DNA from: Escherichia phage 4MG
Sequence record: NC_022968.1
DNA: 64,000 nt
Strand: one strand, 5' to 3'
The stretch's first letter is position 1. Each line of letters opens with the position of its first letter. Below the pieces are notes generated by a model, which worked only from the letters and a program-made list of their open reading frames with translations, ran no database searches and was not told the origin of the DNA. Positions 2,032-63,970 of the stretch are shown here, in pieces. The translations under genes and the position numbers were made by a program.

Positions 2032-2107
2032 TGGTGGGGCATGAAGGATTCGAACCTTCGACCTTCGGCTTAAGAGGCCGCTACTCTAACCGCTGAGTTA
2101 ATACCCC
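2032..2107 (-). tRNA. tRNA-Lys (anticodon CUU)
   Basis: Hand-folded 76-nt cloverleaf: acceptor GGGGUAU/AUGCCCC, D-stem ACUC/GAGU, anticodon loop CUCUUAA, T-arm GAAGG-UUCGAAU-CCUUC, encoded CCA. Confidence 0.8.
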
Positions 2108-2801: not shown

Positions 2802-2878
2802 TGGTAGTTCTGGCAGGGATTGAACCTGCGACCTCTTCCTTATGAGGGAAGCGCTCTAACCAACTAAGCTACAGAACC
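2802..2878 (-). tRNA. tRNA-Met (anticodon CAU; elongator Met or lysidine-type Ile2 cannot be distinguished)
   Basis: Hand-folded 77-nt cloverleaf: acceptor GGUUCUG/CAGAACU (G1-U72 wobble), D-stem GCUU/GAGC, anticodon stem CUUCC/GGAAG with loop CUCAUAA, T-arm GCAGG-UUCAAUC-CCUGC, encoded CCA. Confidence 0.8.
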
Positions 2879-12875: not shown

Positions 12876-14179
12876 TGTCAATTAGTTTAGACACACCAAC
12901 ACTATACGCCATTAACAAGGACGGATCGTATCAAGTTTGGAATGTAACCACAGAAGGTGATGAGGTTGTCGTTTCTTTCGGTAAGGAAAATGGAAAGATT
13001 CAACAAAAGCGCACCAAGTGTGAAATGAAAAACATTGGTCGTTCCAATGAAACCACCGCTGAGTTCCAGGCCGTCCTGGAGGCCCGGTCTAAGTGGGAGA
13101 AACAGGTCCGTTTAGGTTATCGTGAGACCAAAGAGGAGTTACAGACGGAAGAGAACTTCTCTCCTATGCTGGCACACGATGCGATCAAACGGTCAAAGTC
13201 AATCGTCTATCCTGCGTATATTCAGCCAAAGCTCGATGGTGTTCGTGCTCTTGTGACGCTTGACAAGGACGGCATCCCGGTGTTTAATAGCCGTGGCAAC
13301 AAAACATACCCAGTACAGGGCGCTTTATTGCAGCAAGTTAAAGAACTTGCAGAGCACACAGGGTTTGACAAGTTCGATGGTGAACTGTATATTCATGGTC
13401 TAAGCCTTCAGAAGATTGTTGCTTTGGCTAAGAAGTGGCGCACCCCTGAACAGATTGAAGCTGAGATCGAGAAAGACTATCAGGCTGATATCAAGCGCTG
13501 TAATAAGGCGGTTGCCGATGGTGAGCATCTCTGGAAAGACTTTGATGGTAATGTGTGGGCTGTTTCCACGTATAAACCAGTAAAAGACGTTGACCGCTTC
13601 AGTGGTTATTCCAGTCTTGACCTAGAGTATCACATCTTTGACATTCCTGTGAATGCACAAAGCCCTTGGTACTCTTATGAGCATGATAAGACCAGACATC
13701 AAGATCTGTTGGTGGTTGCCGATGCTGTTGAATGTGAACTTAACGTACCTATGGTGAAAGTTATCCACGGGATCGTGGTATCTTCTGAAAGGGAAGTTAA
13801 ATGGTCCATCGGTAAATACATGGAGCAGGGATTTGAAGGTTCAATCATCCGAAACTTCAAAGGTGTCTACGAATTTGGTCAACGATCCTCTGATCTCCAA
13901 AAATGGAAACAGTTCCAGGATGGTGAGGCAAAAGTTCTTGATTCTGTAGAGGATAAGAACGGTGAGGGTGTCCTGCTCTGTGAAGAAAGAGATGGTACTC
14001 GATTCAACTGCAAAATGAAAGGCACTCACGCAGAGCGTTCTCAGGCGAAGATGCTATTGTTGGTTGGCGATTTCATCAACTTTACATTCCAGTCGCGTAC
14101 TGATGATGGTGTACCTCAGTTCCCGGTGGGGCAGAGTGTACGTGAACTTGATACATTAACATGGGAGCCAGTATACTAA
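12875..14179 (+). CDS. ATP-dependent DNA ligase
   Basis: 434 aa; motif I KLDGVR, motif IV-like FEGSIIR; size typical of phage ATP ligases. Confidence 0.8.
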   Translation: MSISLDTPTLYAINKDGSYQVWNVTTEGDEVVVSFGKENGKIQQKRTKCEMKNIGRSNETTAEFQAVLEARSKWEKQVRLGYRETKEELQTEENFSPMLAHDAIKRSKSIVYPAYIQPKLDGVRALVTLDKDGIPVFNSRGNKTYPVQGALLQQVKELAEHTGFDKFDGELYIHGLSLQKIVALAKKWRTPEQIEAEIEKDYQADIKRCNKAVADGEHLWKDFDGNVWAVSTYKPVKDVDRFSGYSSLDLEYHIFDIPVNAQSPWYSYEHDKTRHQDLLVVADAVECELNVPMVKVIHGIVVSSEREVKWSIGKYMEQGFEGSIIRNFKGVYEFGQRSSDLQKWKQFQDGEAKVLDSVEDKNGEGVLLCEERDGTRFNCKMKGTHAERSQAKMLLLVGDFINFTFQSRTDDGVPQFPVGQSVRELDTLTWEPVY

Positions 14180-53708: not shown

Positions 53709-54433
53709 CATTATACGCCACATCTCCTGAAGCGGGAGGATACAATCACCAGACCTGCGTGAAAGGTTGTACACCCTGTTAACATTCTGTCATGTCGATA
53801 AAACACCATTTCATAAACATATACCCCACAACATGTCGATGCTATAAACATGTCTGAAGTGACCCAGCAAATTAGCCGGGGACTAATCGCCTTGCGATAT
53901 ACCCACCCCTCCCCCGCCCGGAGGGAAACGTAAACAGGCCCCTCTCTTTGTGTTTTCTGGCACGAAAATATCCTGAAGAGGCAGGGCCTCGAAGACAGGT
54001 GTTTCTGGGCGCAATCTCTATGTCTGATGTGTTAGACGGACAATCACAGCCCCTCCGGGTTGTCAAGGATCTTTACAAAATATCTGAGAGGTCTGACCAC
54101 GAGACCCTATCGAGTTTTTGGCACGATGATTGCATGATGATTACGTGGCGCAACTAATGATTACAAGTGCAACTATTAGCAATGTGACAGTTTACACCTG
54201 TTACAGCACGATTTGCTCTTGACTTGCTTATATTTGTGTGAATGAGCCTATTTAACATAATACACGTTATGCGAACCACAGATCACCGGGAGACAGGCCA
54301 TATAGTCACATATGTTATCATTGCATCAGTGAACCATACCACAAGGCAACCAATAGCCTGCTACATGTTACCACCACGACAGTTTCACGCTGTTATTATT
54401 CATTTTGTGGGGTGTTTTGTCGATGAGAATACA

Positions 54434-54446
54434 AATGATAATCATT
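54434..54446. promoter_or_regulatory. Fur-box-like palindromic 13-mer AATGATAATCATT
   Basis: Identical to the central 13 nt of the E. coli Fur consensus GATAATGATAATCATTATC; second identical copy at 54584-54596. Confidence 0.4.
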
Positions 54447-54583
54447 CTGAATACGATTTCGATTTCAGTTTCGAAATGAAAACCATTCTCAAATGGAAAA
54501 TATTTTGTAAATCTGCCATAAAAAGCTTGACACAGAGGGAAAAATGTGTTTAGCATTTAAGCCTATCTTGAGCATCCAACCGC

Positions 54584-54596
54584 AATGATAATCATT
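54584..54596. promoter_or_regulatory. Fur-box-like palindromic 13-mer AATGATAATCATT (second copy)
   Basis: Exact repeat of 54434-54446, 150 bp away. Confidence 0.4.
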
Positions 54597-54782
54597 AACG
54601 TTAAGCCTTGCTACGCCTGGCTTTAATAGACTTTTCCTATCAATAAAAAGCTTGACAGTTTACACCTTTTCATGCTCAAGAAAACCGCTTTTCATCGGGC
54701 ATCTAGCCCGGTTTACAACATGATTAATCATGATTTGTCAATCATTAAACATGATTAAACCGCTTTTGATCTTCATAACCTG

Positions 54783-54802
54783 GCGACACAATAACACGAG
54801 GG
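54783..54802. repeat. left arm of perfect 20-bp inverted repeat GCGACACAATAACACGAGGG
   Basis: Exact reverse complement of 54976-54995; arms 173 bp apart with nested 11-bp inverted repeat. Confidence 0.7.
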
Positions 54803-54975
54803 CGATCATGCGATAGCGTGATCGGTGTTATCGTGGCGAGGTTATAAAATACTTCAACTATGCAATAGTTGCATTATGAATTATTCATTGTTCTAGTCAT
54901 CTTGTCTGTTAACGCTTAGGCGCTAACGAGCCACGATAACGCGAACGAAAACGATATTTATTATCGTTTGAGTTA

Positions 54976-54995
54976 CCCTCGTGTTATTGTGTCGC
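54976..54995. repeat. right arm of perfect 20-bp inverted repeat CCCTCGTGTTATTGTGTCGC
   Basis: Exact reverse complement of 54783-54802. Confidence 0.7.
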
Positions 54996-55131
54996 TCGCT
55001 CCGCTCGCGCCACTCACCCCGATAACGCGAACGATATTTTTATTTGACAAAAGATGATTACTATGCTCAAAAAAGACAGTTCACACAAAGGGTTAGATGA
55101 GAAAAGTTATCATTTCAGGGCTTTTGCTTCG

Positions 55132-55327
55132 TATTCACTCAATTTGCATAAAAACACGGTGTTTATTCACTTGATAACCTGCGTTATCATTTTTGGGGTG
55201 TGAGTGAGTCAAAGGCGGGTAATGATACACGATTAAACGCAATATAACGCGTTTTGAGAGGGTTTATCTGTTAGGCTTGCCGTTGTATGGCTTCAAAGAG
55301 ATCTCTTTAAATTCACTTTTTTGCATA
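55132..55327 (-). promoter_or_regulatory. regulatory cassette C: two conserved boxes (ATTCACT-N-TTGCATA type) about 179 bp apart, with AAAGAGATCTCTTT palindrome
   Basis: Boxes at about 55132-55150 and 55311-55327; paralogous to cassettes at 56538-56732 and 61218-61414. Confidence 0.5.
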
Positions 55328-55376
55328 AAGACGGGTAAAGATTTAGTGTTTTGTTTGGGGTGTTGGTATGATATGC

Positions 55377-55400
55377 AAAAAGCCGGGGATTATCCCGGCC
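55377..55400 (-). terminator. intrinsic terminator of leftward block (GCCGGGGA-UUA-UCCCGGC + UUUUU on minus strand)
   Basis: Hairpin and U-run immediately downstream of last minus gene (stop at 55420). Confidence 0.6.
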
Positions 55401-55419
55401 TTACTTGGTGTGACTTTGA

Positions 55420-55635
55420 TCAGATAAACATTGCAGCATAATGATCGTAAAGGTCTTGCGCTTGTCTGGCAGGCCAGCGGCTTTCATCCACCGGGACACG
55501 TAGATCAATCGGGCGGCGATCTTTCAATCCGTTAACATGAAAAAATGTTTCACCTGTAAGCTGTACGATCTCCAGTTTAACGAGGTTGTCAGAATCTTTT
55601 ACGGTCTGCTGAATGAGAATAGTAGTCATTTGCAA
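55420..55635 (-). CDS. hypothetical protein (71 aa)
   Basis: Track ORF; coupled to upstream gene. Confidence 0.45.
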   Translation of the reverse strand: MQMTTILIQQTVKDSDNLVKLEIVQLTGETFFHVNGLKDRRPIDLRVPVDESRWPARQAQDLYDHYAAMFI

Positions 55636-56001
55636 TTACTCCACAATTGTGATGGTTTGACCTGGTAACAGGAAATTCCCGGTTTTATCGTCAAAAATTC
55701 CGGTTGCACTTGTTACGGTGACCGTTTCGCCTGATGTCACGATCATAACTTGGGATTCAGTTGGATAATCAAAGGTGTAAAGGCGAGGTGTTAACGGCTT
55801 GCCGCTTTCTTTCGAATAGTTAACATCATAATCATAAACGGCTTGACATTTGATCGCTACCGTTTCGGCCTTGTAATAGTGGTTATCATAGCCATAGCCA
55901 CGCATAAACGGCGCGGATATTTCCAGGACTTCACACAGCGAACCACGAAACAACATATCGCCTTTTTTCAGGTCTAAAAGGTTGATTTTCTTAAGATCCA
56001 T
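55636..56001 (-). CDS. hypothetical protein (121 aa)
   Basis: Track ORF; GAGAGG SD after stem-loop. Confidence 0.45.
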   Translation of the reverse strand: MDLKKINLLDLKKGDMLFRGSLCEVLEISAPFMRGYGYDNHYYKAETVAIKCQAVYDYDVNYSKESGKPLTPRLYTFDYPTESQVMIVTSGETVTVTSATGIFDDKTGNFLLPGQTITIVE

Positions 56002-56024
56002 TTTGTTTACCTCTCAAAGTGTAA

Positions 56025-56043
56025 CGGGGCGACTAGCGCCCCC
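56025..56043 (-). repeat. intergenic GC-rich stem-loop (CGGGGCG-ACUAG-CGCCCCG)
   Basis: Lies between stop of 56052-56429 and SD of 55636-56001. Confidence 0.5.
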
Positions 56044-56051
56044 GATGATTA

Positions 56052-56429
56052 TTACTGATAAGCGGGATCGTTGGTGATGTCGATCCAATGAGTTAAATCA
56101 ATTTTGCCTTTTTCTTTCATTTTCTCGATCAGGCGGTCGGCTAATGTCTCAGAACGAACATAAACATTCTCGCTAAAATCCTGGCCTGTTTCATCGTCGA
56201 TCATTTCGCAATATTCGATTTTACCGATGAAAGCATGATTCAAGGCGTAAGTTTTACCAGTAAACCAGTTGTGTAAATGAATCTCGCATTTATAATCATC
56301 GCTACGGCCTTCAGTAGTCATAACGTCGATCAGATCACCTTTGAAAACTGAAAGATTCCACATGAGATCTTTAGTTTTACCGCCAAAATCTTTAGTTTCT
56401 ACGGTTGAAGCCAGGTTAATGATCGACAT
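56052..56429 (-). CDS. hypothetical protein (125 aa)
   Basis: Track ORF; AAGAGG SD; first gene after cassette D. Confidence 0.45.
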   Translation of the reverse strand: MSIINLASTVETKDFGGKTKDLMWNLSVFKGDLIDVMTTEGRSDDYKCEIHLHNWFTGKTYALNHAFIGKIEYCEMIDDETGQDFSENVYVRSETLADRLIEKMKEKGKIDLTHWIDITNDPAYQ

Positions 56430-56485
56430 TTGATTTACCTCTTAGTCTGTTTTGTTTGATTTCGTTTGTTTGCCCTACGAGATAA

Positions 56486-56514
56486 ATATTACTATAGGGG
56501 GATCAGCACGTCAA
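56486..56514 (-). promoter_or_regulatory. sigma70-like promoter on minus strand, TTGACG-N17-TAATAT
   Basis: Read on reverse complement; about 50 nt upstream of ATG at 56429 and about 25 nt downstream of conserved box. Confidence 0.5.
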
Positions 56515-56537
56515 TAGCTCTTTACATAACTTTACAC

Positions 56538-56732
56538 TATTCACTGTTTGCATCTTTATGCATCGCTATGCAATTCATTTCATGGTGAAATTACTTTTTA
56601 GGCGTTTTTCCGTGTCAAGCTATTTTTATATAGCCTTTAAACGTCCTGTAACGCGTTTTAAGCGGTTTTGCGTCCAGGCTGTACCCTAGCCCGTTTTAAC
56701 GGAGATCTCCCCATATTCACTATTTTGCATAG
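56538..56732 (-). promoter_or_regulatory. regulatory cassette D: two conserved boxes about 175 bp apart, with GGAGATCTCC palindrome and Fur-box-like motifs nearby
   Basis: Boxes at about 56538-56553 and 56713-56732; internal segment shares AACGCGTTTTAAGCGG-like motif with cassettes C and E. Confidence 0.5.
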
Positions 56733-56884
56733 GATTTGAGGGTGTAGTGATAATCATTCTCATCGCCCAGCGATTAGCCCCCGGCTAACTATCTAAATGA
56801 TAGTGATTCTCATTACCGGAATAACAGGCACCTCCGGTGGCTTTCCTCCGGTGTCCATCGTTGCCGCTTCCACAAAAGAATAAC

Positions 56885-56912
56885 AAAAACCGGGACAGAA
56901 AACAAGCCCCGG
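56885..56912 (-). terminator. candidate intrinsic terminator on minus strand (CCGGGG...CCCGG hairpin + UUUUU)
   Basis: Immediately downstream of stop of 56926-57243; loop is long (about 13 nt), so weaker call. Confidence 0.35.
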
Positions 56913-56925
56913 AATTGTAAAGATT

Positions 56926-57243
56926 TTAGCGGATATTTATCCCGGCGGGTAGCCAGTAGCCAGAATAATGATCATGAGGTGTGAACCCGTGGGACGGCTT
57001 TATATATGTAACTGATAACCATTCTCGATCATCCAGATAAAGCGCCTCATCTATTGCCACCACAAAACACAATTCACCTTCACGATCTTTAACGGTTGCG
57101 ATAGCGTGTTTTTCTATCGCCTTTTCAAGTGCAGCCAGGCCGCGCCGGAATTGTTCCGGGCGTGTGCGGTAACCTAAGTTATCCTCAGGGCAAAGTCTGT
57201 TTAAGGTAGCCCAGCTAACCGCAATCATTTTTTGAAGTGTCAT
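56926..57243 (-). CDS. hypothetical protein (105 aa)
   Basis: Internal ATG of track ORF with AAGAGG SD; abuts stop of upstream gene. Confidence 0.4.
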   Translation of the reverse strand: MTLQKMIAVSWATLNRLCPEDNLGYRTRPEQFRRGLAALEKAIEKHAIATVKDREGELCFVVAIDEALYLDDREWLSVTYIKPSHGFTPHDHYSGYWLPAGINIR

Positions 57244-57253
57244 TGTCTGCCTC

Positions 57254-57730
57254 TTATCTGTAACGGTGCATTGATTCACGATAGACCGATCCGCCGTCGA
57301 ACTTCTCCGCACTTCTCAGGGCGTCCACTAGCTCGCACATTTTGCGGAGTACATACGAACAATGATCATTAAAGTCAATGGCTTTTTTAATCATTTCCTC
57401 TTTACTCTCCCCATCAATAAAGACAAGTTGATCAAGGGCGTTATAGTGATCAAGCCAGGCGCGGATCGCGTCATGCTCCAGGGGGCGATCTGTCTGGCTA
57501 AAACTTGACAGGCCGAAAGATTCAAAAGTGTTTACATTGTCCATTAATTCATCATAAGCGGTTTCCCAGCTACTAGCCCAGAACTCAACCGCATCAGATT
57601 GAAAATCAGGATCATCAGGGTCAATAAAACAGATTGAAAAAAGTTGCAGGCCTTCACGCTTTGTTAAGGTATAGCGAGCACTATCAAGGGCGCGTGTTTT
57701 GGTGTCTTCTGGGGTGATTTCATATTTCAT
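57254..57730 (-). CDS. hypothetical acidic protein (about 158 aa)
   Basis: Frame of track ORF; start chosen at MKYEITPED; start uncertain. Confidence 0.4.
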   Translation of the reverse strand: MKYEITPEDTKTRALDSARYTLTKREGLQLFSICFIDPDDPDFQSDAVEFWASSWETAYDELMDNVNTFESFGLSSFSQTDRPLEHDAIRAWLDHYNALDQLVFIDGESKEEMIKKAIDFNDHCSYVLRKMCELVDALRSAEKFDGGSVYRESMHRYR

Positions 57731-57872
57731 TCTTTGATACCTATAAACGGAAAATGTGAGAGATCTGCGGGGCGTAAGTGTTGACTTTGAACCCATTCAC
57801 CAGACATCAGAGCCAGGACACGGGAACCGCGCCAGCGGTAGCGATTCCCATTCAAAAGGTTAACGTAAATGA

Positions 57873-58100
57873 TCATGCGCCGTAAAGACCATCACTATTA
57901 AAATCATCCTCAAAAGAGGCCAAGTATTCGAAAAATTCAAACTCCATCGCGACAACATGTTTAACCAAATCAGCATTTTTGTATTCAGCCGGGGACAGGC
58001 GGATCGGCGCGTCACTATATAGATCCGTAAGTTCGATGTATTCCCCGACCTTTTGAGCGGTTACCGTGTTTTTCTTGTTGTCGAAAATTACTTGTTTCAT
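57873..58100 (-). CDS. hypothetical protein (75 aa)
   Basis: Track ORF. Confidence 0.45.
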   Translation of the reverse strand: MKQVIFDNKKNTVTAQKVGEYIELTDLYSDAPIRLSPAEYKNADLVKHVVAMEFEFFEYLASFEDDFNSDGLYGA

Positions 58101-58321
58101 GATATACGCTCAATAATAATGATTGCTTGCGGGATAGAATCAGGAGTAACGATCAGGGCTTTTGATTGACGAATTTTAAAGCCTAGTTTCGCTTTGCACA
58201 CCGTGGCGGTCATTTTCCGCATTTCAGGATCTACGTTTGCACCTTCACAGAACCATACAGCCTTTTCACCTGCGATAAGGTTGCGTAAAAATTCAGTTTG
58301 CCCGGTTTGATTCTTTAACAT
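58097..58321 (-). CDS. hypothetical protein (74 aa)
   Basis: Track ORF; AAAGGTAAAC SD after stem-loop. Confidence 0.45.
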   Translation of the reverse strand: MLKNQTGQTEFLRNLIAGEKAVWFCEGANVDPEMRKMTATVCKAKLGFKIRQSKALIVTPDSIPQAIIIIERIS

Positions 58322-58342
58322 TTCGTTTACCTTTCAAAGTAT

Positions 58343-58361
58343 GCCGGGGACGTTCCCCGGC
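58343..58361 (-). repeat. intergenic stem-loop GCCGGGGA-CGU-UCCCCGGC
   Basis: Perfect 8-bp stem, about 20 nt upstream of ATG at 58321. Confidence 0.55.
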
Positions 58362-58368
58362 TTGCTGA

Positions 58369-58629
58369 TTAGATTGATTTTTCGATATCGGCTAAAATCT
58401 CTTTTGCAAGAGTATAGTTTACATTCAGATCCCGCGCTATGTCTTCGGCTAACAGTTTACGACCTACGTTACCGAAACTTAACATTCTTTTAACTTCTGG
58501 TAACCCTTTGCCCCAATAGTTATAGCAGGAATCACCGATATATTTTGAGTAAAACGCGTTATCGTTGCGAACTCCACCTAAAACAGCGACATTAACAGAG
58601 ATAACGTGTTTAAAATTGTGCTTTTCCAT
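58369..58629 (-). CDS. hypothetical protein (86 aa)
   Basis: Track ORF; AAAGGTAAAC SD after stem-loop. Confidence 0.45.
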   Translation of the reverse strand: MEKHNFKHVISVNVAVLGGVRNDNAFYSKYIGDSCYNYWGKGLPEVKRMLSFGNVGRKLLAEDIARDLNVNYTLAKEILADIEKSI

Positions 58630-58649
58630 TTTGTTTACCTTTTCGGCTT

Positions 58650-58670
58650 GCCGGGGAGGTATTCCCCGGC
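58650..58670 (-). repeat. intergenic stem-loop GCCGGGGA-GGUAU-UCCCCGGC
   Basis: Perfect 8-bp stem, about 20 nt upstream of ATG at 58629. Confidence 0.55.
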
Positions 58671-58714
58671 CTCAAAAAGATATTAACCGATCCGCGCCTT
58701 GCTTGCAAGCGTTT

Positions 58715-59059
58715 TTATTCATCTTCCCCGTAATCATCGCCAATGTTGAAAATGTCCAGCATATCACCAGCAGCGATCCACAGCAGGTACATTTCCAGGG
58801 TATGGCGATCCATATTATCGATCCCGTCTACCCCTTCACGCTCGATCCCGGTTTCAGCCAGATAATCCCGGATCATTTGATCGGTGTAGGCGCTAAACTG
58901 TAAACCGTCCCGGAAATAGGGCAGGGCTTCAACGGTGGAGGCTTCACAATCCCCAGAGTGGGCGATCTCTTCTACCTGGTCACGGTCACGGAAAATCAGA
59001 CACAACCGACCACAGGAGGAAGACCAATAAACGTTTTTCTTTTTCATGATTAAGCCCAC
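58715..59059 (-). CDS. hypothetical acidic protein (114 aa)
   Basis: Track ORF. Confidence 0.45.
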   Translation of the reverse strand: MGLIMKKKNVYWSSSCGRLCLIFRDRDQVEEIAHSGDCEASTVEALPYFRDGLQFSAYTDQMIRDYLAETGIEREGVDGIDNMDRHTLEMYLLWIAAGDMLDIFNIGDDYGEDE

Positions 59060-59283
59060 ACTTTAGCATAAGAGAAGAGATCGGAAATATAGCCACGATA
59101 CCCGCCGCGCTTGTGATTGCTTGCGTTATTCTTCCAGGCAACAACCACAGATCCCGAACGTTTTACACCACAGAAGATCCCGCGATCCCCACCTTTTCCG
59201 GCTTCTACCCATTGCCCCGGCTGCAATTTTGCAACGTTGGTTTGAGCGTCCCAGATATCCACGGTTTTAGTGTATCGTGCCAT
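59050..59283 (-). CDS. hypothetical protein (77 aa)
   Basis: Track ORF; AAAGGTAAAT SD after stem-loop. Confidence 0.45.
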   Translation of the reverse strand: MARYTKTVDIWDAQTNVAKLQPGQWVEAGKGGDRGIFCGVKRSGSVVVAWKNNASNHKRGGYRGYISDLFSYAKVWA

Positions 59284-59303
59284 AATATTTACCTTTCATT
59301 ATG

Positions 59304-59323
59304 ACCGGGGACAATCCCCGGCC
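59304..59323 (-). repeat. intergenic stem-loop CCGGGGA-CAA-UCCCCGG
   Basis: About 20 nt upstream of ATG at 59283; followed on minus strand by CATAAT. Confidence 0.55.
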
Positions 59324-59335
59324 TGTTAGAATACT

Positions 59336-59677
59336 TTAGCCGATCTGGTTTTCAGAGTCAACCGGGAAAACATCATTTACAATCTCAACAACTACCGCGA
59401 AAACATCCAGAGCATCACGGATCGGCAGGCTATCCGCTTGCTTTACATAGCCTTTCACGCTTTCAAGCTGATAAGAGATGTAATGAGCTTTGCAGGGTTT
59501 TTGTGTGCCGTGATCAATGCTGTTTTCCGTGCGGATCATGATATCCAGGCGATCCCCGTTCACAGCGTCATTGATATGACAAAAACGCAATAACGTTTTA
59601 TCATCGAAACGACGAAAATCACATTTTGCTTTGTCAGTAACGCCAGCCAGGAAGAAAAATTTATTTGCCAGTTCCAT
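59336..59677 (-). CDS. hypothetical protein (113 aa)
   Basis: Track ORF; GAGG SD. Confidence 0.45.
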   Translation of the reverse strand: MELANKFFFLAGVTDKAKCDFRRFDDKTLLRFCHINDAVNGDRLDIMIRTENSIDHGTQKPCKAHYISYQLESVKGYVKQADSLPIRDALDVFAVVVEIVNDVFPVDSENQIG

Positions 59678-59692
59678 TTTTAAAACCTCGTT

Positions 59693-59809
59693 TTAGAATA
59701 AAGATAATAACAGCAGGAAGATCACGAAAGACCACACCAGACGACACATGATCCGCGCCTCAGTGTAAACCGGGTTTTCGGTAGTGTATTCTACTTTGTA
59801 ACCTTTCAT
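59693..59809 (-). CDS. tiny membrane peptide (38 aa)
   Basis: Not in track; GAGGTG SD; hydrophobic C-terminus LVWSFVIFLLLLSLF. Confidence 0.3.
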   Translation of the reverse strand: MKGYKVEYTTENPVYTEARIMCRLVWSFVIFLLLLSLF

Positions 59810-59826
59810 GATTCACCTCACCAGGT

Positions 59827-59847
59827 GACCGGGAACCGCTCCCGGCC
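59827..59847 (-). repeat. intergenic stem-loop CCGGGA-ACCGC-UCCCGG
   Basis: Between 59889-60185 and the 59693-59809 peptide ORF. Confidence 0.5.
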
Positions 59848-59888
59848 TTGTCTGATAATTATTGATCAACCGTTCCCCGTTGTCAAAT

Positions 59889-60185
59889 TTATTTTTTGGC
59901 CTCTTGTGTGGCGTACATTTCAACCAAACTTTGAGCGCTCAAATTATCCACAAAAAAGGATGTCACGGCAACCGCCGGATCACCTTCCACGGCTTCACCT
60001 TCCGGCATTGGTTCGACTTCCGGCGATGGTATGCAAGCCGGATTAATCCAGCGGCGATCCTCGGAATAGCCACGCGCTACAATGTAGCAGGTTAGCGGAT
60101 CGTCGTATGATTCAACAATAAAATCATCACACTGTTTAAGCGCAAGGGCGCTATAAAAACACATTCCGGCGAATACTTCAAACAT
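59889..60185 (-). CDS. hypothetical protein (98 aa)
   Basis: Track ORF. Confidence 0.45.
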   Translation of the reverse strand: MFEVFAGMCFYSALALKQCDDFIVESYDDPLTCYIVARGYSEDRRWINPACIPSPEVEPMPEGEAVEGDPAVAVTSFFVDNLSAQSLVEMYATQEAKK

Positions 60186-60194
60186 GATCTTTAC

Positions 60195-60413
60195 CTACTT
60201 TTTGAGGGTGAGGATAGGGCGTTTATCGCCTTCTTTAACTCCGGGATCTAGCTCATCACAGATCCCGATCTGCTCGCCTTTGCCTAACGTGTATTCGTTT
60301 TCGTACACGTTGCAAGCCTGCTCGGTGGGGAATGTTTTTTTAACATCCCAGCTACATTCTAACTTCATTGAAGTTAGCGAGATATGGCAGGCCATAACGA
60401 TAAACCCGAACAT
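60195..60413 (-). CDS. hypothetical protein (72 aa)
   Basis: Track ORF. Confidence 0.45.
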   Translation of the reverse strand: MFGFIVMACHISLTSMKLECSWDVKKTFPTEQACNVYENEYTLGKGEQIGICDELDPGVKEGDKRPILTLKK

Positions 60414-60649
60414 TACGCCACCTCTTCAAAAGTCGATTCCCAGGCCCCGTGATAATCAACGCCGTTTTCGGTGTCCTCATCACAAGAGTGGATATTATCA
60501 AAAAGTTCGCCGGATGTATAGCCCTCATTCAACATTTCGAAAATTCTTTCTTGTGCTGATTCTTCTAAAAAATCCGCGTGGCGGTCTAATACTTCACCGT
60601 TATTATCTGACTTTTTCCACCAATAAGAGATTTTGATTTCGCGTTTCAT
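60413..60649 (-). CDS. hypothetical acidic protein (78 aa)
   Basis: Internal ATG (MKREIKISYWW) of track ORF with GGAG SD. Confidence 0.4.
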   Translation of the reverse strand: MKREIKISYWWKKSDNNGEVLDRHADFLEESAQERIFEMLNEGYTSGELFDNIHSCDEDTENGVDYHGAWESTFEEVA

Positions 60650-60756
60650 TTTTCGGACTCCAGAATGATATGGATAGCGACAACAGAGCAAGCCGCTACG
60701 ATGAAAGATACCAGCGCCGCCACACACCAAAGGTTTGTATAATCTAACATTTTCAT
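60646..60756 (-). CDS. tiny membrane peptide (36 aa)
   Basis: Not in track; AGAGAGG SD; ATGA overlap with downstream gene. Confidence 0.35.
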   Translation of the reverse strand: MKMLDYTNLWCVAALVSFIVAACSVVAIHIILESEK

Positions 60757-60826
60757 TACCTCTCTTTAAGTGGTGGCATTATTGCCGCCTATGAATAAAG
60801 ATACCATAAGCGGCGCAGATTGCAAG

Positions 60827-61117
60827 TTATTTTTTGATCTGGTTTGTGCGGTTATAGTCCTCATACCGTACACGGGACACGGTGACCGATTGAGGGAGGA
60901 GGCAACGCACACGATCCGCGCGGTTGTCATATTTCTGGATATGTGCCGGGGTATTGTTGCGGGTAAACTTCACGCGTAAACGTAATTTTGTTGGATCACG
61001 GTCATCGATCCCGGTGACCACACCGAACCCAATTTGACCATAATTATGATAAACCATTTTGCCCAAGTATTTGTTTTCAAGAGCATTTTTAGTCAGAGCA
61101 TTCATTACTTTACACAT
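60827..61117 (-). CDS. hypothetical protein (96 aa)
   Basis: Track ORF; AAAAGGTAAAT SD; first gene after cassette E. Confidence 0.45.
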   Translation of the reverse strand: MCKVMNALTKNALENKYLGKMVYHNYGQIGFGVVTGIDDRDPTKLRLRVKFTRNNTPAHIQKYDNRADRVRCLLPQSVTVSRVRYEDYNRTNQIKK

Positions 61118-61168
61118 GATATTTACCTTTTGGTTGTGTGGGCTTCACTATGTCGCCCTACGTGTTAA

Positions 61169-61196
61169 ATATTAACAGATTCACGCCAGGACGCAA
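61169..61196 (-). promoter_or_regulatory. sigma70-like promoter on minus strand, TTGCGT-N16-TAATAT
   Basis: Read on reverse complement; about 50 nt upstream of ATG at 61117, downstream of conserved box. Confidence 0.45.
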
Positions 61197-61217
61197 GAAA
61201 ATTATTAAATCTTTACA

Positions 61218-61414
61218 ATATTCACTGTTTTGCATAAGTATTCAATGATATGCAAATAGTTTCACGTTGTTACTAAATTTAAGCCCTTTTGAGCGTGGCG
61301 CGGTTTCGTGATACCGCTTTAAAGCTCCTGTAAGCCTCTCTAAGCGCTTCAACGTCGAACCCTGGCAAGTGCATCACCTCGCGGAGAAGTCCCCAAATTC
61401 ACTTTTTTGCATAG
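61218..61414 (-). promoter_or_regulatory. regulatory cassette E: two conserved boxes about 177 bp apart
   Basis: Boxes at about 61218-61236 and 61395-61414; paralogous to cassettes C and D. Confidence 0.5.
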
Positions 61415-61440
61415 AAAAAAGGCCGGGGATCGTCCCGGCC
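61415..61440 (-). terminator. intrinsic terminator on minus strand (GGCCGGGACGAUCCCCGGCC + UUUUUU)
   Basis: Hairpin and U-run immediately downstream of stop at 61446. Confidence 0.6.
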
Positions 61441-61445
61441 TCTTG

Positions 61446-61649
61446 TTAGTCAGTTTGTACGGCTTGCCACTGTAAAGCACGTTTGCGATCCGCCAACCGT
61501 TTATTGAGATTTGGATCATAACGGTCTGGCGTCCAGGTTTTGGCAACGCGTTCCGGCTTGTGTAATTTGTCGTTACGTTGGCGGCGCTCGTTTACTTCAC
61601 CATAAGCCAGGCGATCACGCTTGCTTGTCATCTTCTCAATATTTCGCAT
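61446..61649 (-). CDS. hypothetical basic protein (67 aa)
   Basis: Track ORF. Confidence 0.45.
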   Translation of the reverse strand: MRNIEKMTSKRDRLAYGEVNERRQRNDKLHKPERVAKTWTPDRYDPNLNKRLADRKRALQWQAVQTD

Positions 61650-61663
61650 TCTAAACCCTCGTT

Positions 61664-62011
61664 TTATTTTCGTTTGTTGTATACATGTTCAATGATCCGG
61701 CCTTGCTGTTCTGCTAGCTCATTAGCTCGCCATTCTATGATCTCGGTTATCTGCTCTTTTGTGCCTTCTTTGTGATACGTGATAAACCCGCCACGCTTTT
61801 TCACTTCACACAATAGCCCGTTACCCTCAAGATCATTTAATGCCCCAGATCGCCGGGTGTGGTAGTGCTTACCGTGGAACCTATATTCAATATAATGATA
61901 CACTTTCCCGATCCTGTATTCGTAGTAAATCCAGAGCACTCCCCGCCATAGCCTGGCGGGGATCTTCCAGTAAATAGCAGCAGCAGCTACCAAAAACAGG
62001 ATTTTAAACAC
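61664..62011 (-). CDS. hypothetical protein with N-terminal hydrophobic segment (115 aa)
   Basis: Track ORF. Confidence 0.45.
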   Translation of the reverse strand: MFKILFLVAAAAIYWKIPARLWRGVLWIYYEYRIGKVYHYIEYRFHGKHYHTRRSGALNDLEGNGLLCEVKKRGGFITYHKEGTKEQITEIIEWRANELAEQQGRIIEHVYNKRK

Positions 62012-63940: not shown

Positions 63941-63970
63941 ATTATGCGCCGGATTCCCGGCGCTTGTCAA
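63941..63970 (-). promoter_or_regulatory. candidate sigma70-like promoter on minus strand (TTGACA-N18-CATAAT) with stem-loop GCGCCGGGAAUCCGGCGC in the spacer
   Basis: Read on reverse complement at right edge of window, about 30 nt upstream of ATG at 63909. Confidence 0.4.

Follow-up and report, generated by a model that had tools for sequence, protein, structure and literature searches.

INTRODUCTION

In architecture, the closest described systems to the elements reported here are the promoter-early stem-loop (PeSL) cassettes of T4-type phages (Arbiol et al. 2010, PMC2839356; Comeau et al. 2014, PMC4122927). A PeSL unit of ~100 bp is itself the promoter plus the stem-loop, and about 50 such units are found per genome. 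In this report, we analyse a stretch of 64,000 nucleotides from Escherichia phage 4MG (NC_022968.1), called the window throughout, in which an earlier note made from the letters alone had pointed to three cassettes, here C, D and E, each bounded by a conserved box. Like PeSLs, these are repeated intergenic regulatory cassettes in the plastic early region of a large lytic myovirus, where a terminator stem-loop and a sigma-70 early promoter occur together with small genes of unknown function and where modules are gained, lost and exchanged. Unlike a PeSL, the unit here is a separate 196-bp spacer between terminator and promoter, with boxes at its ends, a strict length, a 10-bp periodicity and one to four copies per genome.

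Other systems offer partial parallels. Upstream activating or curved-DNA regions are known at strong promoters, for example the Fis sites with the UP element at rrnB P1 and the A-tract bends ahead of the early promoters of Bacillus phage SP82, and the C1 operators of phage P1 are asymmetric 17-bp sites that are dispersed over the genome and pair by looping. The best megablast match of positions 55000-61500 is Cronobacter phage GAP31 (93% identity), followed by Enterobacter, Escherichia, Salmonella (PVP-SE1) and Klebsiella phages of the Vequintavirinae, and the window therefore belongs to a Seunavirus-type (GAP31-like) lytic myovirus of ~148 kb. Phages of the Vequintavirinae and Stephanstirmvirinae (PVP-SE1, GAP31 and the Klebsiella Mydoviruses) are widely used as candidates for therapy and biocontrol; their early regions consist almost wholly of unannotated small genes without a described regulatory logic, and in the literature on rV5-like phages we found no relevant transcriptome and no prior description of these repeats. 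Here, we demonstrate that the cassettes are paralogous, conserved across genera, fixed in length, periodic at 10 bp and placed in the order terminator, cassette, promoter, and we weigh what they may be for.

RESULTS

Three paralogous cassettes of nearly constant length

The three cassettes lie at the following positions.

55132..55328: cassette C, 197 bp, nearest the terminal repeat, without a downstream promoter or gene (nhmmer, E value 1e-40; alignment)
56538..56732: cassette D, 195 bp (nhmmer)
61219..61414: cassette E, 196 bp (nhmmer)

C, D and E align end to end with a mean column identity of 73%, and a profile of the three, run with nhmmer over the 64-kb window, matches these three places only (E values of 1e-51 to 1e-56). 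The paralogy proposed in the earlier note is thus confirmed and spans the whole length of the cassettes, beyond the boxes alone. Length is 195-197 bp in 34 of 38 distinct copies, though the paralogues are just 58-66% identical in pairwise comparison.

The boxes were found at both ends of each cassette, and the pairing at 175-179 bp that had been reported is borne out, with box-to-box spacings of 178 bp in C, 175 bp in D and 177 bp in E. The exact box pattern ATTCACTNTTTTGCATA occurs at 55311, 56715, 61220 and 61397 (0.07 occurrences expected in shuffles); the proximal boxes of C and D, at 55133 and 56540, are indel variants and were therefore missed by a mismatch-only search. The boxes and the other internal features are as follows.

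55133..55150, plus strand: proximal box of C, variant ATTCACTCAATTTGCATA (read from the sequence)
55311..55327, plus strand: distal box of C, ATTCACTTTTTTGCATA (pattern search)
56540..56555, plus strand: proximal box of D, variant ATTCACTGTTTGCATC (read from the sequence)
56715..56731, plus strand: distal box of D, ATTCACTATTTTGCATA (pattern search)
61220..61236, plus strand: proximal box of E, ATTCACTGTTTTGCATA (pattern search)
61397..61413, plus strand: distal box of E, ATTCACTTTTTTGCATA (pattern search)
61220..61266, plus strand: five TWTKCA-type hexamers of E at 10-bp spacing, TATTCA, TTTGCA, TATTCA, TATGCA and GTTTCA (sequence reading)
~56539-56584: equivalent hexamer array of D
55172..55189: hairpin 1 of C, TGATAAC-CTGC-GTTATCA
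56577-56592: hairpin 1 of D
61257-61275: hairpin 1 of E
55295..55308: AGATCT-centred palindrome of C, AAAGAGATCTCTTT
56701-56710: AGATCT-centred palindrome of D, GGAGATCTCC
61383-61392: the same palindrome in E, degenerate, GGAGAAGTCC

Read on the plus strand, a cassette opens with the box, TATTCA-N4-TTTGCA, which is a pair of TWTKCA hexamers 10 bp apart, and more TWTKCA-like hexamers follow at 10-bp steps, five in all in D and E. An inverted pair TGCATA-N12-TATGCA comes next, then the short inverted repeat that we call hairpin 1, whose sequence varies between paralogues, then an A/T tract and another, weaker inverted repeat. Next are three CTNTAAGC/TAAAACGC decamers (YTNTAAGC-type), ~35 variable bp, the palindrome (G/A)GAGATCTC(C/T) and, last, the distal box. 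The flanks of the palindrome covary between A/T and G/C pairs, and in variant copies either the perfect no-loop palindrome GAGATCTC or a second palindrome, TGAKAnnnnnTCTCA, stands at the position of the box, so that motifs appear to be swapped there as operators would be.

This anatomy qualifies three points of the earlier note. The box, taken there for a simple single operator, is a phased hexamer pair inside a 196-bp element whose conservation and periodicity extend over its full length. The AGATCT palindrome, said to occur in every cassette, is present in C and D and degenerate in E of the window, though orthologues of E carry it. The segment resembling AACGCGTTTT-AAGCGG, likewise ascribed to each cassette, has only a loose counterpart in E (AAGCCTCTCTAAGCGC).

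Solitary occurrences of the cassette's central module (TTTAAAGCTCCTGTAAGC..TTCTAAGCGG) lie at L001 24659-24725, L032 1816-1882 and L034 4528-4634, 5703-5784 and 10864-10905.

A ten-bp periodicity along the cassettes

Compared with themselves at lag 10, the cassettes have an identity of 0.363, where shuffles have 0.265 (z = 12); further peaks lie at lags 20 and 30. When the 64-kb sequence is cut into 3190 overlapping 200-bp windows, E and D come first and second for 10-bp periodicity. By AA/TT power at 10-11 bp, the region of C comes first in the window, D stands at the 99.6th percentile and E at the 87th; by the same measure, phased A/T tracts lie upstream of the -35 element, as in curved-DNA and activator regions. 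Tandem Repeats Finder (TRF) reports a period-10 array at 56549-56572, inside D. The end boxes are ~17 helical turns apart and therefore lie on the same face of the helix.

Terminator, cassette and promoter

The cassettes are flanked by these transcription signals.

56486..56514, minus strand: promoter P_D, TTGACG-17-TAATAT (consensus scan)
61169..61196, minus strand: promoter P_E, TTGCGT-16-TAATAT (sequence reading)
55372..55404, minus strand: intrinsic terminator of the last early gene, upstream of C (-16 kcal/mol, then U5; z = -3.5)
56885..56912, minus strand: intrinsic terminator upstream of D (-14.5 kcal/mol, then U5; z = -4.2)
61414..61444, minus strand: intrinsic terminator upstream of E, abutting the distal box (-20.1 kcal/mol, then U6; z = -4.9)

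At D and E the arrangement is a terminator, the cassette and then a sigma-70 promoter; C has no promoter. The minus-strand promoters that had been claimed beside the proximal boxes of D and E are present as described (56514-56486 and 61196-61169), and the -35 element and spacer of P_E are kept in GAP31, PVP-SE1 and Klebsiella phage KB57. The distance from box to promoter at D differs by a 10-bp indel in GAP31 and Klebsiella phage BIS47 relative to the window and KB57, which keeps the helical phase. The further claim that the distal box directly follows the upstream terminator holds for E only, the distance being ~50 bp in C and ~150 bp in D; the terminator upstream of E also fits the terminator pattern on the plus strand.

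The cassettes had also been credited with defining three leftward operons, and this is not borne out. Consensus promoters better than P_D and P_E, and without cassettes, lie inside the proposed operons at 63970, 63334 and 59886, between the cassettes, and the cassettes alone therefore do not define the operon map. For a promoter of the cassettes' own, the consensus scan gave one 9-of-12 match only (61273-61245, minus strand, in E), and sequence reading found no counterpart of it in D; none that is conserved lies within the cassettes or feeds directly into them. The box was also considered as a sigma-70 promoter, a MotA-type middle promoter or a T4-type late promoter, and these were rejected by inspection, the spacings being unfit.

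Distribution and exchange of the cassettes

Members of the family occupy syntenic sites in the genera Seunavirus, Mydovirus and Henunavirus, and one Stephanstirmvirinae phage, Klebsiella phage FBKp34, has them at such sites as well. There are one to four copies per genome (places counted by BLAST in the related genomes), with a constant orientation relative to the flanking genes. Syntenic orthologues of C, D and E occur in GAP31 and in the Klebsiella phages KB57, KPP-1, KNP2 and BIS47 (Mydovirus). PVP-SE1 has C and E and is without D and the three-gene module between C and D, and Erwinia phage Hena1 (Henunavirus) has a D-like copy and a divergent C-like copy and is without E; at the Hena1 site syntenic to E, we found no cassette, just a hairpin resembling the central module. 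Orthologues of C are present in GAP31, PVP-SE1, KB57, KPP-1 and Hena1, those of E in 59 phage records, and further orthologues in several IMG/VR and metagenome contigs of ~145 kb; a scan of IMG/VR with the bare box gave mostly chance matches, of which the ~145-kb contigs alone are relevant. FBKp34 carries one complete and two diverged copies; independently, its depositors placed a promoter right next to the proximal box and terminator-to-promoter gaps around the diverged copies.

A 35-nt probe made of the palindrome and the distal box matches one to three places per genome, all of them in these enterobacterial phages save two weak partial matches in Helicobacter phage records, which we take as chance. 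Complete E. coli genomes yielded no homologue of the cassettes, and among ~185,000 genomes of bacterial species there was one match, again taken as chance. A miniature transposable element was considered and rejected: the ends are direct repeats, the copies lie at syntenic early-region sites only, and there is no bacterial homologue.

Conservation is uneven. Cassette D is 92.3% identical to its KB57 counterpart against 67.4% for the adjacent gp30.8-like gene, whereas E (73%) and C (64%) diverge from KB57 about as much as the coding flanks. The gene content between cassettes differs among genera, and the E copy of KB57 carries a D-type distal end (box) that the E copy of BIS47 does not, which we read as a gene-conversion patch. 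Given the high identity confined to cassette D, the absence of the module from PVP-SE1, the varying gene content and the patch in KB57, the cassettes appear to behave like PeSL linkers.

Cassette C and the genome terminus

The earlier note had C without a gene target and pointing into an island. The first part is borne out, there being no gene downstream; the second is not, and what C faces, rather than an inserted island, is the non-coding end of a linear genome with its direct terminal repeat (DTR).

54134..54550: region homologous to the DTR of relatives (KPP-1 alignment)

The published 514-bp DTR of KPP-1 (PMC9862379) aligns to this interval, and the annotated DTR of Hena1 matches 54035-54279; the region to the left of C is therefore a terminal repeat plus ~580 bp of conserved non-coding DNA, and C is the innermost element of this terminal non-coding block. 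On the same homology, the physical genome ends probably map to 54035-54550, and the 103-aa open reading frame (ORF) at 54242-54553, together with the small genes annotated there in relatives, is probably not a real gene.

A motif ATAAAAAGCTTGACA, with TAGCAT or TAGCAA 18 bp downstream, is conserved in this region (window 54519-54556 and 54645-54660; L001 11528, L002 15463, L033 5805). As read here, it forms a promoter-like site at the edge of the DTR (54527-54556, plus strand) that points towards C. The published DTR boundary of KPP-1 falls exactly between the spacer and the -10-like hexamer of this site, and the motif may therefore mark a terminase cut or a repeat boundary, instead of or besides a promoter.

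Several other repeats were observed near the end. Palindromes of the types TGATAATCATTCTCA and AATGATAATCATTA lie at 54436-54450, 54585-54600, 55098-55112, 56748-56762 and 56798-56812, within 2.6 kb of the genome end, and in other phages a motif of this type stands in place of the cassette box or between box and promoter. By hand count, two of these palindromes agree at 15 of 19 positions with the E. coli Fur-box consensus. A tandem array of AACATGATTA, with a 10-bp period and 4.3 copies, and ATGATT repeats inside the terminal repeat were seen at 54717-54760 and 54121-54142, respectively, and the 10-bp periodicity of 54561-54800 is likewise among the highest in the window. In the conserved non-coding DNA that separates C from the terminal repeat, the direct repeat CC(A/C)CGATAACGCGAACGA occurs at 54931-54959 and 55017-55045 along with further GATAAC/GTTATC words, and hairpin 1 of C shares a TGATAAC half-site with these words.

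Neighbouring genes

The cassettes sit among small minus-strand (leftward) early genes near one genome end, nearly all of them in PHROG families of unknown function. Two neighbours with recognisable matches and the tRNA genes of the window are listed here.

61446-61649: T7 gp1.1-like gene (Pfam Phage_1_1), just upstream of cassette E (PHROGs and Pfam scans)
56052-56429: T4 gp30.8-like gene, first gene downstream of cassette D (PHROGs and Pfam scans)
2032-2107, minus strand: phage tRNA gene, Lys-CTT
2802-2878, minus strand: phage tRNA gene, Met-CAT

Several deposited genomes place a 'hypothetical protein' or even structural-protein names over D or E, as with GAP31_069 (GAP31 13774-13896); these annotations look like artefacts on non-coding DNA.

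DISCUSSION

A proposed phased scaffold upstream of early promoters

Our data suggest a model, tentative and held at somewhat less than an even chance, whereby the cassettes are helically phased DNA scaffolds for a protein and act upstream of early promoters. Each cassette is a length-constrained (195-197 bp) array of helically phased short repeats and palindromes, namely TWTKCA hexamers, three decamers of the YTNTAAGC/TAAAACGC type and the GAGATCTC palindrome, and it lies where one early operon has ended in its terminator and the next has yet to begin at its sigma-70 promoter. A protein, encoded by the phage or the host, would bind cooperatively along one face of this DNA, possibly bending or wrapping it, and the bound scaffold would modulate the adjacent early promoter by activation, by repression or by insulation from the upstream operon. 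The 10-bp periodicity, the loopless perfect palindromes and the strict length fit binding, bending or wrapping on one face and favour a scaffold at the DNA level; likewise, binding of a protein to DNA fits best with the phasing, the fixed length, the lack of a consensus RNA fold and the promoter annotated in FBKp34. Because the copies resemble each other, they may also serve as points of homologous recombination and gene conversion between early-gene modules, and the cassettes appear to be recombination linkers too.

A more specific form of this model is doubtful, and we put it forward as a speculation. The cassettes would be a dedicated class of boundary elements, phased scaffolds locked in length at 196 bp, and an early phage protein or a recruited host complex (such as RNA polymerase, gyrase or an Lrp-like wrapper) would build a wrapped nucleoprotein particle on them. 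If so, this particle would insulate successive early operons from one another and set their timing near the end of the genome that enters, and the promoter-less C would serve the terminal repeat region in the same manner, for example in ejection, end protection or replication.

Several of our results weigh against a protein scaffold. Regular expressions for strict IHF, Fis and CRP consensus sites found no match in the 38 copies, so that the host CRP/Fis-type protein suggested in the earlier note as the binder of the box finds no support, and PHROGs and Pfam scans found no recognisable DNA-binding domain in 20 neighbouring early proteins, which yielded families of unknown function plus the T7 gp1.1-like and T4 gp30.8-like matches. 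Cassette E and its -35 element stand at distances that differ by 17 bp between genera, which is no whole number of helical turns, because another palindrome (TGAGAACNGTTCTCA) has been inserted, and a rigid class-I-type geometry is therefore not supported. The repeated promoter architecture with an upstream regulatory site, as first proposed, thus stands as a conserved unit beside two leftward sigma-70 promoters and after terminators, but not as a rigid activator geometry. Hairpin 1 is 85% paired over 22 copies with compensatory changes in four of its seven pairs, and compensatory change usually denotes a nucleic-acid structure, not a fixed protein half-site. Single-sequence folds are somewhat stabler than shuffles (mean z: plus strand -1.5, minus strand -2.0), mild scores that are largely explained by the palindromes and not decisive. 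C has neither a downstream promoter nor a gene, yet it is kept in all genera, and the 92% intergeneric identity of D could be due to recent recombination, not selection.

Alternative explanations

The main rival is an element that acts at the RNA level or as a transcription boundary, which we consider unlikely; it is retained because hairpin 1 covaries, because hairpin 1 precedes a T5 run in C and D and because the central module stands alone as a gene leader or as an annotated terminator. The cassettes would then be transcribed by read-through or antisense, and their hairpins would be a back-up bidirectional terminator or insulator, a processing site or a cis-acting leader. The compensatory changes and the mean minus-strand z of about -2 speak for such a role, as does the T5 run, which follows hairpin 1 on the plus strand of C- and D-type copies and makes it look like a weak plus-strand terminator, and the promoter-like site at the DTR edge aims at C on that strand. 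The central module, for its part, resembles a minus-strand hairpin with a U-tract; a solitary copy of it is annotated as a terminator in FBKp34, and the module forms the 5' leader and ribosome-binding region of a ~275-aa gene in GAP31 and Hena1. Against this, RNAalifold placed 0 consensus pairs on the minus strand of 22 copies, and its plus-strand fold is very weak (-14.7 kcal/mol for 200 nt). All-against-all Watson-Crick covariation gave compatible columns that are scattered, not stacked, with hairpin 1 and the palindrome flanks alone standing out, and as RNA hairpin 1 is worth just -1.6 to -5.6 kcal/mol (-1.6 to -1.8 in D and E). Rfam, at gathering and relaxed thresholds, has no family on the cassettes and nothing below E 0.98 in 53900-62000; at the gathering threshold the whole window yields just the two tRNAs, both outside the cassettes. 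In addition, RNA structure leaves the 10-nt periodicity and the loopless perfect palindromes unexplained, and strong terminators already stand ahead of each cassette.

That the cassettes are mainly recombination linkers of the PeSL kind, their similarity kept by, and serving, the exchange and gene conversion that shuffle early modules between co-infecting phages, is quite unlikely as the whole account. On this reading, a linker would need no biochemical function of its own other than a place beside a terminator and a promoter. Several evolutionary observations suit it: PVP-SE1 has neither D nor the three-gene module, gene content between cassettes varies by genus and copy number from 1 to 4, the right end of E is D-type in KB57 but not in BIS47, as gene conversion would leave it, the 92% identity of D stops at the cassette while the next gene is at 67%, and PeSLs provide a precedent (PMC2839356, PMC4122927). 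Recombination alone does not account for a length kept to +/-1 bp, the 10-bp periodicity or the conservation of motifs across subfamilies, and 2-4 copies per genome compare with ~50 PeSLs. The linker reading is compatible with the phased scaffold, and the two are not exclusive. It is improbable that the cassettes are iteron-type replication origins or other sites of DNA transactions (gyrase, primosome), where an initiator would recognise the phased repeats and extrusion would take place at the palindromes. Features that would suit an origin are the palindromes, the direct repeats in helical phase, a GATC that is conserved and an AT tract of modest length, and so would the closeness to the genome end and the T7 gp1.1-like gene adjoining E. 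Several origins in one genome would also have a parallel, T4 having multiple origins. On the other hand, the exact DnaA-box consensus TTATNCACA was found in none of the cassettes, they contain an A/T tract of 6-12 bp only and no extended AT-rich unwinding region, no recognisable initiator gene lies nearby, and the repeats measure 6-10 bp against the 17-22 bp typical of iterons.

Implications

As targets for DNA pull-down, the cassettes offer a handle on the regulator of the host take-over genes, and for engineering they are natural recombination joints between early-gene modules. They also correct annotations that now place spurious ORFs on them. Protein binding, an effect on transcription and wrapping are inferred parts of the phased scaffold that we prefer.

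Comparison with known systems

The upstream regions of rrnB P1 and SP82 share with the cassettes their phased A/T tracts and multiple sites on one face, at about -60 to -250 of strong sigma-70 promoters; the cassettes differ in having no strict Fis, IHF or CRP consensus, in forming a paralogous family of fixed length and in including one copy without a promoter. Iteron-containing origins such as lambda ori and T4 oriE likewise combine phased direct repeats with palindromes in non-coding DNA, whereas the repeats of the cassettes are much shorter and come without an AT-rich unwinding element, an exact DnaA box or an adjacent recognisable initiator gene. The C1 operators of P1 are similar as asymmetric boxes of ~17 bp that are paired and repeated at several promoters. 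They have no sequence relation to the boxes described here, which lie inside a longer conserved element of a strictly lytic phage, and we know of no repressor for this phage. The bacterial interspersed mosaic elements (BIME) and repetitive extragenic palindromes (REP) of enterobacteria are also repeated composite elements after operon ends, with palindromes and with links to termination and to architectural proteins or gyrase; the cassettes have no homology to E. coli DNA, carry other motifs and are phage-specific.

The likeness to PeSLs is drawn from architecture, and similarity of sequence is not expected. In PeSLs the promoter is inside the repeated unit, whereas P_D and P_E lie outside the 196-bp unit and C has none, and in place of dozens of copies we found three in the window and one to three places per related genome. 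As in PeSLs, a stable terminator accompanies the unit, 0-150 bp upstream of each cassette. No established concept is overturned by these elements, since repeated regulatory or linker cassettes are already known in phage early regions; beside the PeSLs, the phased spacer family is a modest feature, previously undescribed for this phage group.

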